From Eremomyces bilateralis CBS 781.70 (lineage: Eukaryota), in the NCBI GenBank assembly GCA_010015585.1, contig ML975152.1: a stretch of DNA of 64,000 bases. One strand, given 5' to 3'. The first letter of the stretch is position 1, and each line of letters opens with the position of its first letter. Under the pieces are notes generated by a model. The model was not told the origin of the DNA. It ran no database searches and saw only the letters and a list, made by a program, of their open reading frames with translations. Both the position numbers and the translations under genes were made by a program. This document shows, piece after piece, positions 48,816-57,800 of the stretch.

Positions 48816-49111
48816 ACTTGCGCGCCAACATGGGACCTGTCAAGTGCCTACACTGGTCATTGGCGTCATAGCTAGTCCAGCATGTATCCTAGAATCACCG
48901 GGAAAGCATGAGAATCAATAATGGTGTTGACAGAGACTTTCTATGGCCCCTCGTTTTAATGCGTCATTGTTCGTGTCTATCATCGTTATCCATCGTCCAT
49001 GCCCAACTCGTGCAACCGGTCGTTTTAGCCGGCACGTGAGGTCTGAATATTACACCTCTCGCACGGTTCCAATATTTCGGAGACAGCGTCCGCATTCGAA
49101 GCGTGTAGCAA

Positions 49112-50762
49112 CTAGTAATCCATGAGATCACCATATGACCCATTTGAACCCGCCACGTCCTCCATCGTCATGGCCTGGCCGCCCCTCAGTGCCTCCATGT
49201 GAGGTCCGCGACCTTTGCCAGAGGCGACCACTAGGTTGGCATGCAACATATTCATGCGCATTAACCGCAGCCGCAACGTCCGCTCGTACGACTGAGCCAT
49301 GTCAAGCGCTTGGGCTTGCAGGGCCGATCGGGGATGTGGAGTGGGGGAGATGAGTAGCTGAGGAGCTGTTAGTGTCTCCGTTGGAAAAGTATCGTAGAGA
49401 GGCTTACTCGATCCACCAGGTCTAGCCGTGCCTCCAGAGACCCCCTTTTGATCATGTCCACTAATTCCTCCTCGATTGGTCGCCCATCGGTGGACGGGAA
49501 CCGTGTCTGCATCTCGTCCAGCGTGACCTTATTGAACGGTTTAAAGTACTGCACGATGCTCTTCCGCCGCACCAGTTCGTAGAGCTGGAGCAGATGCGGC
49601 TGCAGGTAGACGTCTAGCAAGTAGTCGTTGCGGTGCGAGTCTAGGATTTCGAGGCAGGCGGAGTAGTTGCAGGAGCAGAAGAGGGAGATGGCCCGACGAA
49701 TGTGCGGTTCCAGTTCCAGGAAATGTCGGAACGTCGCGCTGTCGAGGACCCTCTCTTTGAGCTCTTGGGGGCTCATGGATGCCAGCGCACAGAGACCGCC
49801 GTAGACGGCAATGTCGTTGCCTGTTATCAGCTCTTTCTGAAAGTCGATCCCCGCACGTGGTTCTAGGGCCGTATAAGATTGCGGGGTTGCAATGAAACTC
49901 CTCGCCGCGTCGGCATAGTTCTTCGCGGCGAGTGAGACGAGACCGTTCAAGGGCGGCAGGAGGGCGTCGATAATGTCTTTGTCCTCGGTCGGAAGGGGTT
50001 GAGCGAGGACGCGCTGGATGGCGTTCCCGAGGTGGTGGAGCTGCTTGGTGGCAAGGTGGACCATGGCCAGCTTGAGGAATAGTTCGATTTCATGACGGGC
50101 GGTTTGTCGGAATTCCCGGGCGCGGGCGTATGCTTTCAAGGCACTGCCGAAGTCCCCGATCTGGTACGCGTGGAAGGCGATGTCTTCATTTGCCATCTAC
50201 GCTGCTGTCAGCTGCCTGGCTTTCGAAGCCGCCTGAAATGCCCAGGCCGGAGTGAGTTTCTGAACGCTTACACGAATGCTCTCTCGGATCATGTTGTTCT
50301 TGTACCCTTTCAGCTCCTGATCCAACCGGTCCGATTCCGCCTTCTCCACCAGCTTCGTCCGGGCGACCCAGTCCAGGTCTGTCTCGCTCAGCGGATCTCC
50401 CGGCACGATCTTCTGCAAGATCTCCATGACCTGCATGTAGGCATCCACATCTTTGCCGCGTCGGGCCTCTTCCATCGCCAGTCGGAGCGCATCCAGACAC
50501 AGGCACGTCGACGTGGCGCCGATGGACTTTAACCGGTCGAGTTTTGTTCTTCCTGTGGCGGGATCAGCAACGGCGTCATGTCTGCGTGGAACGGGGTAGC
50601 CGGACCTTGGTAGTTGGAGATGTATGATTCGAGGTCGAATTTGGGAGGTTCTGCGGAGTCTTAGTCAGCGGACGAGCTATTCTATAGCATAGGAGACGTA
50701 CCATGGACAACAACGAGCCCATTTTGGGCGCGGTTATTGAAGAATTCGGAATTGGCAGCCAT
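49112..50762 (-). CDS. CSN1: COP9 signalosome subunit 1 (PCI domain)
   Basis: PKFDLESYISNY.GRT, ELKGYKNNMIRESIRMANED, NDIAVYGGLCALAS, FLELEP, YLLDVYL, ARLD; 4 introns. Confidence 0.92.
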
Positions 50763-51597
50763 GGTGAGTTTGCGGCGATGTCGTGCGGCGGTTGGTAGGT
50801 GCCCGTTCGGACGGCTTAGTCCATAGCTGGTGAGGAATGGTTTGGATTACGAGCTAGGAGGGTTGATCATTCGTAAACTGGTTCCGTTTGGTCCTTCAAA
50901 TTTTCATGCGTTTCCAGCGTGTGTATCAGTGTACAATATGTTCAAGGTACGAGCAAGTGAAGTTATCGTAGTGAAGTTATCATATGGCTGGAGCTCCAGG
51001 TTAAGCAGGAGCTCGGGGTGAGCTTACAGTGTCATGGATGCCTTACCGACTATCGGCTTGATGCCTGAGGCACCAAGGCACCAATAGAGTATAGCACGTG
51101 ATATGACGCAAGTATGGAATTGTTCCATGCGTTCTGGGCTCAGGCACTCTTCACCATCGACAGGCGATATGATTGAAAAGCATGTTTATGGGTTACTGAT
51201 ACAAACTCTATCAATGACTGAGCAGGCCAGTGACCTGCACAAGCCCAACTTTTCCAGTCCTATGGTCATGTCATCGGCATTAGCCATGTAGCCGTCGTCA
51301 AGTCCCCATGTCCCGTAGGCCGTTAATACACCAGACATCCCGTATCGTCAAAGTGGGTGGCCCTTCGTGTTCCTGCCGACCCATATTAAGACCTTCCAAA
51401 CGCCGCAAATGATTCGAATCGACAAATGACACGGGCCGAATGGGCGTGCAATAAAAGCCACCAACCATCCGGCGTTGAATGAAAGTAGACGCGTGACCCA
51501 AGTGGGGTCCGCGTCGTCCCCAAACCCCTTCCCATAAAAGTACAGAACTCATAGCATACAACTGGACCACTTTTCAGAGCATCGGGGATGCATCATC

Positions 51598-52059
51598 TCA
51601 GATCAAGAACGGCGTCGATTCAACGTTGACCAGGTTATCGGGCACCCACGGACCTTTCTCCTCCTCAGTCGCGCCCAGCAGAGCCGATGCACGCTCCAAG
51701 GTTCGGATATCCAGGTCCGTCACGTAGTTCTTGGTATCGAGGTTGACGCGGACCTCGAACTCGCGATCCAACATCATGTCGTCCTTCCATAGTCGACGAG
51801 GGCCGTCGTACACGCAGATGACCCGCTTCTTCATGTTCATACGGTCGACTGGACAACCCCAAGACGTGGGATAGTTCTTTCGCCTCTTGCGGCCGGACGT
51901 CTGCCCCGTGAAGGGTACGCCGCCCTTGCTGAACGTGAGACCGGCGCGGGTTCCAACGTGACCAGTTCCTCTCCCACCAGTGGTCTTGGCGATGCGGTTG
52001 TGAGGGTTGCCACCCCCGACGTGCTGCGAAGGGCCGACACCTCGGGGATGTGCTAATTG
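51598..52059 (-). CDS. Putative readthrough C-terminal extension (153 aa) of the C2H2 TF
   Basis: In frame and stop-free directly after TGA 52062-52060: QLAHPRG...GLTFSKGGVP...RKRRKNYPTSWGCP..RMNMKKRVICVYDGPRRLWKDDMMLD.EFEVRV...YVTDLD; C/G-ending codon bias. Confidence 0.75.
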   Translation of the reverse strand, partial: QLAHPRGVGPSQHVGGGNPHNRIAKTTGGRGTGHVGTRAGLTFSKGGVPFTGQTSGRKRRKNYPTSWGCPVDRMNMKKRVICVYDGPRRLWKDDMMLDREFEVRVNLDTKNYVTDLDIRTLERASALLGATEEEKGPWVPDNLVNVESTPFLI

Positions 52060-54139
52060 TCACATTGGATCTTCTTTCCGGGACCGGATGCCGCCCTTGC
52101 CGGAGCGTGGATCGCTGCTGTTGCCGTCCCCGCTCTCCTCATTGTCCGCATCGTCGTCGTCCTCATCTTCGTACGGGGGAAGGCTGAAGTCCATGCCGTC
52201 TGAAAGTTTATGGCGTGTGAGGGACTCCTTGACATTCTCGTCGTTCTGGACCGACTCGAGGTTCTTCTGGTTGATGGCCTCGCTCGGCTCAATCTGCTGC
52301 ACGACGCGAAGGACACAGTCGTCGAGATGCTCGTAAAACTCCTGGGCGGTCGGGAAGACGATGCTACATGTGGAGCAGGTGCCCGATGTATTGTTTTGAG
52401 GGTTTTGTCCTTTCCTGCCTGGGCTCCTCTTCCGGCTATTGGGTGGGGTTTGTTCCACTCCATGGACCGAAGTCAGATGTCGCTTGAAGACATCGGCGCG
52501 GTTGAAACTCTTCTCCGCTGCGGAACCCGAGCCCGGGCAGAAGCCGCACACCATGGTACCCTTGTAATGGGTCAACGTATGACGGTTCTTGTCATACTTC
52601 CGTGCGAATCCTTTCACGTGGTATTCGCAGGTTTGGATCGGGCACTTCTCGGGCCGCTCGGTTTGGTGGGTCAACATATGGGCCTTGAGGTCCTTGAAGA
52701 CACGACCACAGTCCCCGATCGGGCAAAGCCCCTTGGGGTCCTCCTCGAGATCGGAACGACTTGATCGCGAATGCCTTGACGCCTGTGAGCCAATAGACTG
52801 TCGTCGTGATTCGTTGAAGGTAGGATAGGGCTCGTATCGGTTTCGTGGCGATTGGCTGCCATGGGTAATGTTTCTCGAACTGACCCGAGGGTGGCTATGG
52901 CCCGAATTTTGAGAATAGGCCGGGGAAGGGGGGTGTTCGACGTTGGTGAGATGGGGCGATGCGGTCCCGCCATTGAATCCGGTTGGGTATAAGTAGGGAG
53001 CAGCGAAATGATTGGCGATAAGAGAAGGATCTAAAAGCACGGTCGGAGTTAGCTGCTGCTAAGAGGGTTTGCAAAGCTTCTTCAAGATATATGAAGATCG
53101 ATAAAGCAAGGATAAGGAAAAACCAACAAGAAGACTCCAACGGAGGAACGAAAATGCCGCTGCTTTGATGAAAGAATGGAGATGAAAGAGATTCAGAAGA
53201 CGCAGGAAAGTTGCCCTGGACGGGCTCTACTGCCGCGGATGGGGGCCAAATTTGATGCGAGAGGAGCGAATTTCTTCGAGGAGCCACCGGTGACCCCGCC
53301 ACCGACCTTGGGCCCCCATGTGGTTCCTGCTGTGGCACTTGAGAGCATCGAAGATATGGAGACGCCATCCTGGAGGCTGGGAGGCTTGGAGACTTGAACA
53401 TCCCGCCATCCTGCGATTCGATGGGGGTGACGGTCGACCCGTTTGACCTAGGGATCTCGGTCGGGGTGGTGGCGGTCGGCGACGATGTGTTCTCCAGGAA
53501 AGGGCGGGCAATTGAAGATCTTCTCGGATATCGCAACACAGGCGACTTGAAAGACTCGGAAGAAGAAGGAAAGGCAGAAGACACGCTAAAATGAGACAAC
53601 GAAGGAACTTCAGATGACTCACCCACGCAGCCCGGATCCTTCGGAGCTGCAGCCAGAATGGGACCAGCATCGTAAGAGGAGCTGCTGATGAATGCCTGCG
53701 ACATTGGGAATCCCTCCGCTTGGCTCAAGCCCAGTCCGGCGTATGACCAAGCCTCGAAGGCCGCAGGAAGGGCGGGCGACGGGATCGTCGAGCTGCTAGT
53801 GCTTGAGAGGGACCCGGTCGAGTCGGATGCGGTCGAGAGCCGTGGTGCATTCATGTCCAGCGGCTGGAGAGGAGATTCCGGCGGGCTATACGGATTCTCG
53901 AAGGTCCCGCCCGTTTGCGATGGATCCAGTGGGAAGCGAGCATCGGGGAGTTCGGCCGGGGTGAAGAAAGGCGCCTGCAGGGATTGGAGACTTTCCATGC
54001 TGCTGATGGGGGTGCTGGTAGAAACGGTGTCCAAGTATTGGGCATACGCCGTGTGGGCCGCCGACTGCTCATCGTACAACTGCGCAGTGAAGAAGTCTTG
54101 GTCCGACATGTTTTGAGGGTACATGTAGGATGAGGGCAT
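52060..54139 (-). CDS. C2H2 zinc-finger transcription factor (form ending at the first TGA)
   Basis: Fingers CPIGDC..H..H, CPIQTC...HTLTH, CGFC...HLTSVH, CSTC...HLDDC. Intron acceptor at 53031 with donor 53127 or 53622. Start at 54139, possibly 54588 via intron 54162-54469. Confidence 0.9.
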
Positions 54140-54188
54140 GTTAGGATTCGTGGATGTGGGACTATCGGTCCGCTTGTCAGCATGGGGA

Positions 54189-54287
54189 TCTTGATCAATA
54201 TCCTGATCGATATCTTGATCGATATCTTGATCGATATCTTGATCGATATCTTGATCGATATCTTGATCGGTATTTTGATCGGTATCC
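54189..54287. repeat. 12-bp tandem repeat (TCTTGATCGATA) x about 8
   Basis: Direct reading; gives (DQDI)n on the minus strand but probably lies in an intron. Confidence 0.9.
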
Positions 54288-54850
54288 TTATTTGAGTCTG
54301 ACATGATTGGGATCATAGATAGGGTCGTATGAGGGGAATAGAAATGGCGCGAAAAGAATGGGCGTGCTTTGTCTGAACTACAAAGTGGAAGGATAAAAAT
54401 GCTTTGTGACAGAGTGAAGATGCTCCTCATCGCGAGGCCAGAAAGATTTATAAGAAACAGGAAACTCACTCTTTCACAACGAAAGGGGGCGCTGGGGGGG
54501 GAGGAGCGAACTGATCAGCGGCGGGATCCAAACGAGGGACTCGCCTTGCACGCCGTCGTCGAGACGATGACCGGGATCGCCCGCCCATTACTTCCCATTC
54601 AGGGTCTCCGGGAGGAGCAAGTGTGGAACAGATGAACAGTGGAAGTCAGGATGCAACTTCGGTAGAATGCAGGACACCAATCACTGGAACGGACAATTGC
54701 ACTCAACCACAACTGTTCTTCTCAGTTCTCCTCAGTGGTACTCGGATTCTTGGGAATTGACACAAACGTGGAAGTGGATAGAAAACCAGGTGCACGTGTT
54801 GCGGAGGTAGAAATTAGTAATAAGGCAGGGACTGTAGCTGGTGCAGCGAC

Positions 54851-54894
54851 GGGTGCAGTGAAGGGTGCAGTGAAGGGTGCAGTGAAGGGTGCAG
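54851..54894. repeat. 12-bp tandem repeat (GGGTGCAGTGAA) x about 3.7
   Basis: Direct reading. Confidence 0.85.
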
Positions 54895-57800
54895 CGACTG
54901 ATAAGGCTGATGCCCCACAGCAGAATGTGTGTCGTTCTGAATTGCAGTTGCCTTGTTGGCCACGGCAGTTTATCCTGACACTAGAACAAGGTGAAGGGTG
55001 GATGAAGTATCAACAATTATAATCATCAACAATAGCAACAACAATAGGATGGAAGTGTGGAAGCATATGAGAGGGATGGAGTTCCTGGAAATGAAGAATT
55101 AGACTTGAATAGAAATGGCACAGTGAGGAAGGATATGTAGGGTGTTAGCAATCTGGAACTGAATTTAGAAAGGCTTCGAACCCGTCCGGAGAAGGGGGGG
55201 CGCAGTCGATATAAGAAGATCTTTTTTGGTTTTCGGGGGGATTGGGGGGATGGGGGGAGGCATAGTCACCACCACGAAAATGCGCAGCACCATGACACAC
55301 CATCCGCCGACGTTCCCCCCGATCTAGGACAACACCACGACATAATTAGGTAGTATGCTGCACCGCACGATTTCCAAGCCCTCCTCCAAATCCAGAAAAG
55401 AGCGGAGCCGTCCAACCGTTCGCTTTTGATTGACGCGAACAACACCGACTGCTCTCCACCACGATGCCCACCGCGTCCAGAGATCAGACACCGACCCGAA
55501 CCATGCAGGGCTCCAAGCCGCCGAATGCTGCCAATCTAGCCAGTGCGCCCAATGGAACCTCTCTCCCTTGTCGAGCCTTACGGCGCCCGCGACCATGGGT
55601 GAGTGATGGGTATGCATGTCCGCTCGTCTGTACTCCCGAACTTCCCTGTCCCTGCAGAGCATCATCAAAGAGTCGACTCAGTCAAGGACCCACGGCTACC
55701 GGGGATCTTTCCATCTGGCTGTTTTCGGTTTGGGGGCATGCTGGGCTGGGCCGAGTGGGGATGGACGCGGTCCCTTTTGGCAGGGAATAGAAGGGGAGTC
55801 CCCCGGTGATCCATAACTAGTGACGGCGAGCATCTTGCACAGCAAATCCCCTGTTCCTCCGCCTCGCCGCCTCTTCGCGCAGCCCGAAGGTGTCTGCGCC
55901 ATAAATCCTCTGCACCACGAGTCGGTCTGCCATTCTACTTCTGTGACCACCCCTTTCGTCCTGTGTGCTCCAGTAGCCCTCCCTAGTGTAGGGTAATTGC
56001 CCACTAAATCAATAATTATCAATGATTTTCTCGCGTCTTCGTTTGATAAGTCGGCAGCATGCCAATCTCATCTCGTCTAGGATCGTAAGACAATAATGTC
56101 AAGAAAATAATACTGGTATTTGAGTCAAGGTCGAAACCAAACTCATTCCAATTCTCAATCGCGGCCCGCTTCCTTATCCACTTTCCACAGTGCTGTGGCC
56201 GAAACTCGGACCTCTTAGAAGTCATTGCGACAGTGCTGATCTCGTTCCTGAATCCTGAATTCCTATTTCTCCATTTGGCGGGGTAATCATGATCCGTCAA
56301 TGGGCCGTCATACTACGTATTTTTTAGGGAGGACACTGAGCTTCTCCAGTCGTAACGCGGATGTGTACCAACGGTGAAGACTCATGGTTATCAAGACCAA
56401 CCATGGTTCACGGCAGAAAATCTCGCATGATTGACGAATCGGGCAGTGGAAATGCCGTTTGGAAATGCCGTTGTTTACTTTTCTCGACCATCATGGTCAC
56501 TCTGATGTAATAGAAGTCAACAAATCTCGTTGTGGGGAGGAACGGTGGTCCCTGAGCCACGGCTCTCCTGGAGTAGGGTACCAACCGGAAGTTTCCTTGA
56601 CGAAGTGGTTCAGAATTCAAGATTTATAATCATCGAATTAATTAGTTCTGTATCGCGGGAACGTAGAATTTAGAAACCCGTCAAAGGGCCTGGGCGGACC
56701 GGTCCAGATATGTATCGTCCTCCCCCTTTGACGTGTCAATCACGCAATAATGATCCAACTTTCAAGAGGCATGCGCGTCTTTGGAGGGAAGGGAGGGGAC
56801 CAGTCATTGGCCTGCCAAAGAAAAAGAGGCTCGAATGGTGGCCTTCTCAAAATAATCCCGAAAATGCCACTATGATGCCAAACTACGACCACGTTTAAGT
56901 GTCACAAACCAGTGAACCACCGGGTCAGGAATGCTCGTTAGTATGACCAGCGACGGTAAGTACCTTGATAAATCGATGAGAATTGAGAAGTTTTGATTTC
57001 GAAGGGTCCACACCGATTAGGAAGAAAGAGGCGAGCCGAAGGCTTGTTCTGGACGCGCCGACGGGGATAGATGTTGGATGGGCAGGGGAGCTTGTCTGTT
57101 TGTTTGACAGATCAGCAAATCTGCAGGATGTGAATGTCTTATGTCACCGGGCGACGTGGTCCTGTATCGCCGATCGTTGGATCATTTGGACTTCTCGAGT
57201 TATTGAGAAGGCAGGGTTCGAAGACAGTGAAGATGCCCAGGAGAACTGCTGTTCAGACTTCAGAGGCAAAGTGTTAGCAGAAAGATTCTGTCATGCGATG
57301 CTTCGTGACGTTGGTGACATGGTGGCTGGGCGGGCTCGTCCACAAGGGCGGAACGGGCGCTGGTGAGTCCGTCAGAGATGGCTGCAAAGCGAGTCTGGGA
57401 TCTCGGTTTGGCCGAAGTGGCACTGGCGCCGTCTGGCGGCGTGCCCCCCCATCCTCAAAAGTATCCGATCCTCTACTACCATTACGATAACAGAATCAGA
57501 TTAGATGTTCGTATGTGTGGCATTATTAACAGTGAATGATTTGCTGGGTGGCTAATTCCGCCGTTTTGAGAAGACGGTATCACGGCATCTTGCAAGGTCA
57601 TCCGAAGCGGTGCGACGATTCCACTTCGTCAGTACATGTGACGCTCCAATGAGACCAACCCCATGTGACGACAGAAATCGGATGGTTGCATGATGCGTAC
57701 GATAGATTGGATGTCGTGGTAAGAAGAAATGTCGCCGACGAGAAAATCTGCAGAGCGGACATGGAGTTGAGGCTTGGAGAAACGGAGAGGCGGTGGAAAT

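Follow-up and report, generated by a model that had tools for sequence, protein, structure and literature searches.

The question raised by this locus is why the gene of a putative C2H2 zinc-finger transcription factor meets a stop codon in its own frame and then stays open for another 153 codons, and whether the peptide encoded there is ever joined to the zinc fingers. The gene lies on the minus strand of a 64,000-nucleotide (nt) stretch of contig ML975152.1 of Eremomyces bilateralis CBS 781.70, a Dothideomycete; this whole stretch is called the window below, and all coordinates refer to it. A first-pass annotation made from the letters alone had read the stop as a programmed, leaky one that gives rise to a short factor and to a longer isoform with a C-terminal extension. 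Our analysis supports this reading, and each of the proposed tests that was run favored it: the site is very probably a case of programmed UGA readthrough in a C2H2 zinc-finger transcription factor gene.

The arrangement itself is clear from the sequence and from the list of open reading frames (ORFs), which agree that an in-frame TGA is followed by CAA TTA GCA and by 153 open codons up to TGA 51600-51598. The peptide carries the features quoted in the first-pass annotation (RKRRK, YPTSWGCP, KKRVICVYDGPRRLWKDDMML, and YVTDLD), and the coding-type composition claimed for it could be reproduced: its third-position GC content is exon-like (0.719, with 0.709 and 0.671 in the exons), compared to 0.50 to 0.52 both for the intron and for what follows the second stop.

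Closer inspection of orthologous DNA provides the first line of evidence. Orthologous loci were the best 80 of 375 relatives among metagenome contigs, ranked by likeness to the query, and the stop was sought in frame between two anchors or within 700 nt after the first (zinc-finger) anchor. The zinc-finger anchor was present in 80/80 loci and the anchor in the C-terminal domain in 75/80, and the two were in the same frame in all 75 loci that had both. Exactly one in-frame stop at the homologous place was found in 69 of the 80 loci. It was TGA in 69/69, and the hexamer after it was CAATCA (33 loci), CAATTA (25), CAACTA (9), or CAACCA (2); the conserved TGA-CARYYA sought in orthologs is therefore always TGA plus CAA-YYA. 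The frame is open in the other 11 loci, all of which are without a short segment that contains the stop. After removal of near-copies (≤97% identity among those kept), 47 distinct sequences were left, the window included, and in 47/47 the TGA, the CAA, and the +8 A stay unchanged, with a pyrimidine at both +6 and +7 in every case, while the second codon after TGA varies in meaning (L, S, or P). In the rest of these ORFs, only 40% of the Gln codons are CAA, and only 15% of the YYN codons end in A; in the gene of the window, none of the 20 further Leu codons counted (0/20) is TTA. As judged by this comparison, TGA-CAA-YYA is constrained as nucleotides beyond the needs of protein coding.

The frame after the stop, in turn, is selected as protein, as the same alignments show. 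Extensions are 129 to 178 codons long, with many distinct values that all keep the frame, in 66/66 stop-bearing loci that have a second stop in range, and loci without the stop match the stop-bearing ones in total length. Purifying selection acts after the stop, with a median proportion of nonsynonymous differences (pN) of 0.223 compared to 0.672 for synonymous ones (pS). The ratio of nonsynonymous to synonymous substitution rates (dN/dS), which the first-pass annotation had expected to be below 1 on both sides, has a median of 0.07 upstream and of 0.20 downstream (downstream maximum, 0.71; 409 pairs). Downstream mismatches at codon positions 1, 2, and 3 amount to 0.27, 0.19, and 0.51. Furthermore, 46/47 sequences keep the readthrough frame open for 130 codons, compared to 0/47 and 3/47 in the case of the two alternative frames. 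As a rule, the extension has its first Met at residue 50 to 73, inside or just ahead of the conserved domain, and therefore has no conserved start of its own.

A further element of the putative signal, which the first-pass annotation did not mention, is a GC-rich stem-loop that begins 9 nt after the stop and has a stem of 9 bp; the 3′ flank of the alignment shows the pattern RCACATCCCCGRGGTGTCG ... CACGYCGGGGGTGG. The helix tested, columns 13-21 with columns 50-58 plus an inner helix of 3 bp, was chosen by eye from the alignment. Its cells are paired in 93% of the cases, compared to 43 to 56% with the partners slid, and compensatory changes on both sides occur in 25 cells, a value reached by 0/500 shuffles. 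Column pair 21-50, for example, is GC 17 times, AU 12 times, GU 5 times, and UA 4 times. The RNA of the window folds by itself into the same helix (−29.2 kcal/mol; z, −3.47), and the stem starts at the same offset in 44/47 single-sequence folds. In sum, the sequences compared indicate a stem-loop that is conserved, supported by covariation, and held at a fixed spacing of 9 nt. Over 51400-52300, no Rfam match was obtained at E ≤ 1. A tRNA scan of the window found none. In loci L017, L018, L021, L027, and L033, the ACACATCCCCGRGG arm is absent, yet a differing hairpin is found at the same offset (~12 to 40 nt after the TGA).

Evidence at the level of RNA comes from one public run (X1) of assembled contigs, stage not given, which we placed on 49000-57000. 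The run is not on record as RNA, but its joints have GT..AG ends on the minus strand (4 small introns in the neighboring gene and 2 in the zinc-finger gene), and it was therefore treated as RNA-derived. One contig of 675 nt spans 51527-52201 with 0 differing letters, 0 gaps, and no joint and thereby holds the end of the zinc-finger ORF together with the entire extension. Since this contig is unbroken and unchanged over the TGA, the stop was neither spliced out nor edited in that RNA material, and the splice option named in the first-pass annotation (52174 to 51929) was unused in it. At 51527, 71 nt past the second stop, the contig end abuts adapter sequence, which is a weak hint that the transcript has its 3′ end there.

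According to the public gene models, a true spliceosomal intron, either constitutive or alternatively spliced, contains the stop, and splicing yields the mRNA for the long protein. The closest protein, P0152 from E. bilateralis CBS 781.70, matches the window translation in all of its 374 residues and lacks 38 codons around the stop, which are removed in its model as 114 nt with GT..AG ends; the models of many named relatives, among them Alternaria, Pyrenophora, Didymella, Stemphylium, Massarina, Lophium, Pleopsidium, and Alectoria, also skip the stop region. Moreover, CAATTAG supplies a YAG acceptor, CAACTAAC in some loci has what we take to be a likeness to a branch site, and one intron elsewhere in the same gene is alternatively spliced. 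However, the RNA contig crosses the stop without a joint and contradicts the 114-nt intron, since it covers 52084-51971, so that this intron of P0152 is probably spurious. The annotated jumps begin and end at non-homologous points between species, some of them resuming exactly past the hexamer, and an in-frame GTRNGY..YAG candidate (40 to 400 nt) over the stop is available in only 11/47 sequences, at non-homologous positions, the window having none. Finally, the frame is kept across the stop in 75/75 loci, which an intron does not require. We therefore consider a genuine intron to be very unlikely. The models fit the expectation of the first-pass annotation that pipelines would hide the stop behind an intron: 38 codons are gone from P0152, and the jumps of relatives differ. 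With readthrough as the preferred reading, this would be a systematic annotation error, in which this species and the named relatives, several plant-pathogen genera among them, have been given differing invented introns, and the deposited protein sequences would therefore lack or garble the linker. An independent observation concerns P0006 (ENA, 22.8-kb contig), a short ORF call that begins MTTHPGGGNS..., as if TGACAA were read off-frame or the hairpin segment were deleted.

Equally improbable is a stage-specific A-to-I editing of the mRNA that turns UGA into UGG, as known as stop-loss editing in sexual stages of Fusarium and Neurospora. Such an activity would be in line with the W at the stop position in P0156, P0160, P0166, and P0176 and with the hairpin nearby, and, according to PMC13123824, stop-loss editing is widespread in some filamentous ascomycetes. 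The same source states that fungal editing favors UAG, whereas the codon was TGA in 69/69 stop-bearing loci and never TAG. In addition, no other letter is seen at the stop in the RNA contig (one run, stage not given), the stop is placed upstream of the hairpin and outside its loop, and G is also found at the stop position. The invariant CAA-YYA would be left unexplained by editing.

Even less probable is that UGA is a true terminator, with an ORF behind it that is either decaying as a remnant or translated independently, through reinitiation or off a transcript of its own. Short public ORF calls (P0003, P0005, and P0006) do start just past the junction, and the 11/80 stop-less loci show that forms with and without the stop interchange. 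Against a mere terminator, 47 distinct sequences, with their closest named proteins in two fungal classes, have retained the stop together with its context, the downstream dN/dS is 0.20, and the frame is the same in 75/75 loci. Furthermore, no conserved start codon precedes the conserved GLTFSKGG/RKKRK part, and a single RNA contig joins the end of the zinc-finger ORF to the whole extension.

That UGA encodes selenocysteine would agree with a codon that is always UGA and has an RNA hairpin after it, but the Rfam families without a match at 51400-52300 (E ≤ 1) include SECIS, and where a sense residue replaces the stop it is W or G rather than C, so that the probability of this explanation is negligible. 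To our knowledge, Dikarya lack the selenocysteine machinery. Most fungi lack this machinery according to PMC10778597.

Several points weigh against programmed readthrough or limit the evidence for it. The query included the sequence around the stop, and ranking by likeness to a stop-containing query makes 69/80 a biased frequency; many of the 80 loci are near-copies, and only 47 are distinct at 97%. Since 11 of the 80 loci are stop-less, the truncated isoform is dispensable in some lineages. The nine-base motif TGACAAYYA is without significance by itself in one window (4 occurrences in 64 kb compared to 1.95 expected; 10/100 shuffles reach 4), and its significance comes from its conservation in orthologs. 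RNAalifold with all 40 aligned sequences gave no consensus structure, and because the helix was proposed after the alignment had been viewed, the controls with slid partners are biased in its favor; the compensatory changes are the sounder support. The RNA evidence is a single run of contigs, from which rare variants are dropped, so that a minor spliced or edited form could go unseen. In any case, RNA contigs and sequence comparison, on which the argument is built, are below the level of protein.

A search of 1.84 billion representatives with the extension gave 190 matches at E ≤ 1e−3 and 22 at E ≤ 1e−30; most of these are the C termini of proteins of 400 to 1,300 amino acids (aa), and the matched proteins that were fetched and aligned share the C2H2 block. 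AlphaFold2 (with 49 sequences) predicted the first 60 residues to be disordered, including RKRRK at residues 57 to 61, and residues ~62 to 140 to form a small, confident domain made of a beta-hairpin, short strands, and a helix (block means of the predicted local distance difference test, 74 to 94 for residues 61 to 140). Taken together, these comparisons indicate that the extension is a genuine conserved protein domain. The RKRRK cluster may act as a nuclear localization signal. No Pfam family was found for the extension or for the C-terminal part of three orthologs. Searches with the AlphaFold2 model, by Foldseek against the PDB (best E, 2.0) and by VIA-align wide (best Z, 3.4), gave nothing meaningful, which does not imply novelty of the fold. 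Matches in the ESM Atlas to PYNP_C-like bacterial clusters were dismissed as chance with scores of ≤0.81. The precomputed Pfam accession PF28332.1 stands on all relatives among the matches listed and is absent from the Pfam copy that was searched.

As for the zinc fingers, a C2H2 finger was recognized at residues 112 to 131 of the translation of exon 2 (PF00096; 25.8 bits, with a cutoff of 25.2), and the zinc-finger block varies hardly at all among 23 aligned orthologs. The gene product is thus predicted to be a C2H2 zinc-finger transcription factor that binds DNA. The record of P0152 is named "metallothionein expression activator," presumably the database name of yeast Ace2. According to PMC6076916, thmea1, a Trichoderma C2H2 gene of the same name, has C2H2 domains in common with the yeast proteins Swi5 and Ace2.

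With respect to distribution, the stop-bearing loci are nearest to Pleosporales (≤93% identity), Mycosphaerellales (82 to 83%), and Lecanoromycetes (72 to 83%), the nearest named proteins of these sequences coming from two fungal classes. In a tree calculated with the linker left out, the loci that lack the stop fall within groups that have it, with 5 changes, at least 4 of which are forced by starred branches; by itself, the tree of loci does not separate gain from loss. One sister pair differs by a deletion of ~8 codons that spans the stop, the hexamer, and the 5′ arm. Elsewhere, a sense residue at the stop position is followed by Q and L/P/S: it is W in the four proteins mentioned above and G in P0159, P0175, and P0185 (all seen as proteins, not as DNA), and the W-bearing metagenome ORFs P0160, P0166, and P0176 match none of the 80 loci. 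In stop-less relatives, the same protein constantly includes both the RKRRK cluster and the C-terminal domain. Because the stop-bearing lineages share the same composite signal, the comparison points to one old origin and several losses of the stop cassette.

The leaky stop of tobacco mosaic virus is UAG. The window has the same CAA UUA after its stop as this type I signal, with C at +4, and all stop-bearing orthologs have CAA YYA; unlike the virus, it has a UGA stop in a cellular fungal gene, with a conserved downstream hairpin added. In gag-pol of murine leukemia virus, a 3′ RNA structure ~8 nt after the stop stimulates readthrough. The stable structure at a short, fixed spacing (9 nt in the window) is similar, and by analogy the stem-loop is a predicted stimulator of readthrough, although what is predicted here is a plain hairpin together with a type I hexamer. 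PMC5397192 states the stop-CARYYA consensus and how much a C at +4 counts. The plant eRF1-1 gene described there is like the window gene in being a cellular mRNA with stop-CARYYA and a long sequence past the first stop that would be prone to nonsense-mediated decay; its readthrough autoregulates a termination factor, whereas readthrough in the window would add a conserved domain to a transcription factor. The peroxisomal isoforms of fungi and animals (PMC4207609) are a precedent for programmed UGA readthrough in fungal cellular genes that provides a C-terminal extension with a new targeting property. In those cases, the context is UGA CUA(G), and the extension is short and has a peroxisomal signal at its end, in contrast to CAA YYA and 153 residues with a folded domain; in the text of PMC4207609 searched, the terms "zinc finger," "transcription factor," and "CAA" appear nowhere. 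Readthrough alters the C terminus of a transcription factor in the Drosophila POU/Oct protein Drifter (PMC8417969) and in the human vitamin D receptor (PMC5868278) as well. These belong to protein families and lineages unrelated to the window gene. Finally, A-to-I stop-loss editing in Fusarium graminearum also produces a C-terminal extension past the annotated stop, but, according to PMC13123824, UAG is edited to UIG in sexual stages, while the stop here is always UGA and the RNA of the one run is unedited.

In our model, most ribosomes probably terminate at UGA 52062-52060 and release a short form of ~495 aa, which includes the zinc fingers and the acidic stretch. Some ribosomes would instead decode UGA by a near-cognate tRNA and translate the next 153 codons in the same frame, yielding ~649 aa; both sizes apply with the 592-nt intron spliced, and the larger one fits the lengths of orthologs (612 to 643 aa). 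By analogy with yeast, the residue inserted at this UGA would be Trp, Cys, or Arg. The leakiness would be encoded by three elements of the mRNA, namely, the UGA, the CAA-UUA hexamer (CARYYA, with C at +4), and the GC-rich stem-loop 9 nt on, and the long form would gain the basic RKRRK cluster and the small conserved folded domain. We infer the occurrence and the rate of readthrough, the amino acid inserted, and any difference between the isoforms in localization or activity. Only tentatively, and with slightly less than even confidence, do we propose that the cassette (UGA, CAA-YYA, 9-nt spacer, and hairpin) predates the split of Dothideomycetes and Lecanoromycetes, that it sets and perhaps regulates the ratio of truncated to full-length factor, and that it is mis-annotated in all public genomes viewed.

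Under this tentative proposal, only the full-length factor carries the basic cluster and the C-terminal domain, and the efficiency of termination, as influenced by stress, eRF1 levels, or tRNA modification, would be read out as a change in transcription. If, in addition, the isoforms differ in localization or activity, this would be a posttranscriptional switch on a conserved regulator. It would also be a cellular fungal case that joins a virus-type hexamer to a structured enhancer. Few cellular genes of fungi have a conserved readthrough site with good support, and we found none among transcription factors; likewise, in the literature outside subscription journals, no report of readthrough was found for this zinc-finger gene family or for Dothideomycetes. 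To the known stop-CARYYA signal, the site adds a conserved hairpin; its distribution is wide and apparently old, and annotation conceals it. The signal is complete and readable, with the leakiest stop, a classical hexamer, and, at a constant distance, a hairpin that shows covariation, and natural controls exist in which the stop is deleted or replaced by W or G; hence, the locus is a ready system to study how readthrough is tuned.

The coordinates of the gene and of the proposed signal are compiled in the following table.

Table 1. Layout of the zinc-finger gene and of the proposed readthrough site in the window
Feature	Position	Strand	Basis or detail
5′ intron, 308 nt	54162-54469	−	spliced out in RNA contig, joint 54161/54470
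First coding exon	53623..54139	−	RNA joints 53030/53623 and 54161/54470; likely start ATG 54139-54137 (MPSSYMYPQNMSDQDFF...)
Alternatively spliced intron, 592 nt, GTGAGT...TAG	53031..53622	−	frame kept across the join
Zinc-finger ORF, stop to stop	52060..53058	−	ORF list
Second coding exon, up to the putatively leaky stop	52063..53030	−	C2H2 zinc fingers, acidic stretch, ...SGKGGIRSRKEDPM end
Public-model "intron," 114 nt, GTCCCG...GGGAG, probably spurious	51971..52084	−	gap of P0152; RNA contig crosses without joint
End of C2H2 gene and stop	TGA 52062-52060	−	reads ...GAA GAT CCA ATG TGA CAA TTA GCA CAT CCC...
Putatively leaky UGA stop, proposed recoding site	52060..52062	−	TGA unchanged in RNA contig; homologous TGA in orthologous loci
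CAATTA hexamer matching the CARYYA context	52054..52059	−	directly after the stop
ORF of the extension, stop to stop, 153 aa, in the frame of the zinc-finger ORF	51598..52059	−	ORF list
Predicted readthrough extension, 153 codons	51601..52059	−	linker with RKRRK (51891-51877), predicted folded domain at residues ~62-140 (51876-51640)
Conserved RNA stem-loop (predicted)	52011..52050	−	5′ arm 52050-52042, 3′ arm 52019-52011, inner helix of 3-4 bp
Second stop TGA, end of the predicted long isoform	51598..51600	−	ORF list; extension length kept in orthologs
Short 3′ untranslated region of the predicted long isoform	51527..51597	−	up to the end of the RNA contig

The last exon of the zinc-finger gene spans 53030-51527 (−). 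The likely start codon is supported by the N terminus of the window protein, which can be aligned with those of orthologs (pattern MVDYxYPQ..DFELY). For the 592-nt intron, the RNA shows both a joint that skips it (53030/53623, GT..AG) and an unspliced contig (53003-53652). The retained stretch continues the upstream frame and matches the segments FVGE.., FKSP.., and FFxQSSGxFVxPLESS, which are present in orthologs of 800 to 850 aa and absent from those of 610 to 640 aa. Because of this frame and this match, the zinc-finger gene probably also makes long and short isoforms of its N-terminal region via alternative 5′ splice sites.

The 5′ intron contains a 12-nt tandem repeat (GATCAAGATATC, ~7 copies, reading DQDI...) at ~54190-54280 (−). 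An upstream ATG at 54316 is also part of this spliced-out intron, and after splicing the likely start is the ATG at 54139. Downstream of the transcription factor gene, a neighboring gene (49000-51472, −) has four introns of 50 to 75 nt that are confirmed by RNA joints, and the contig of this gene stops at 51472; a distance of 55 nt separates it from where the transcription factor contig ends.

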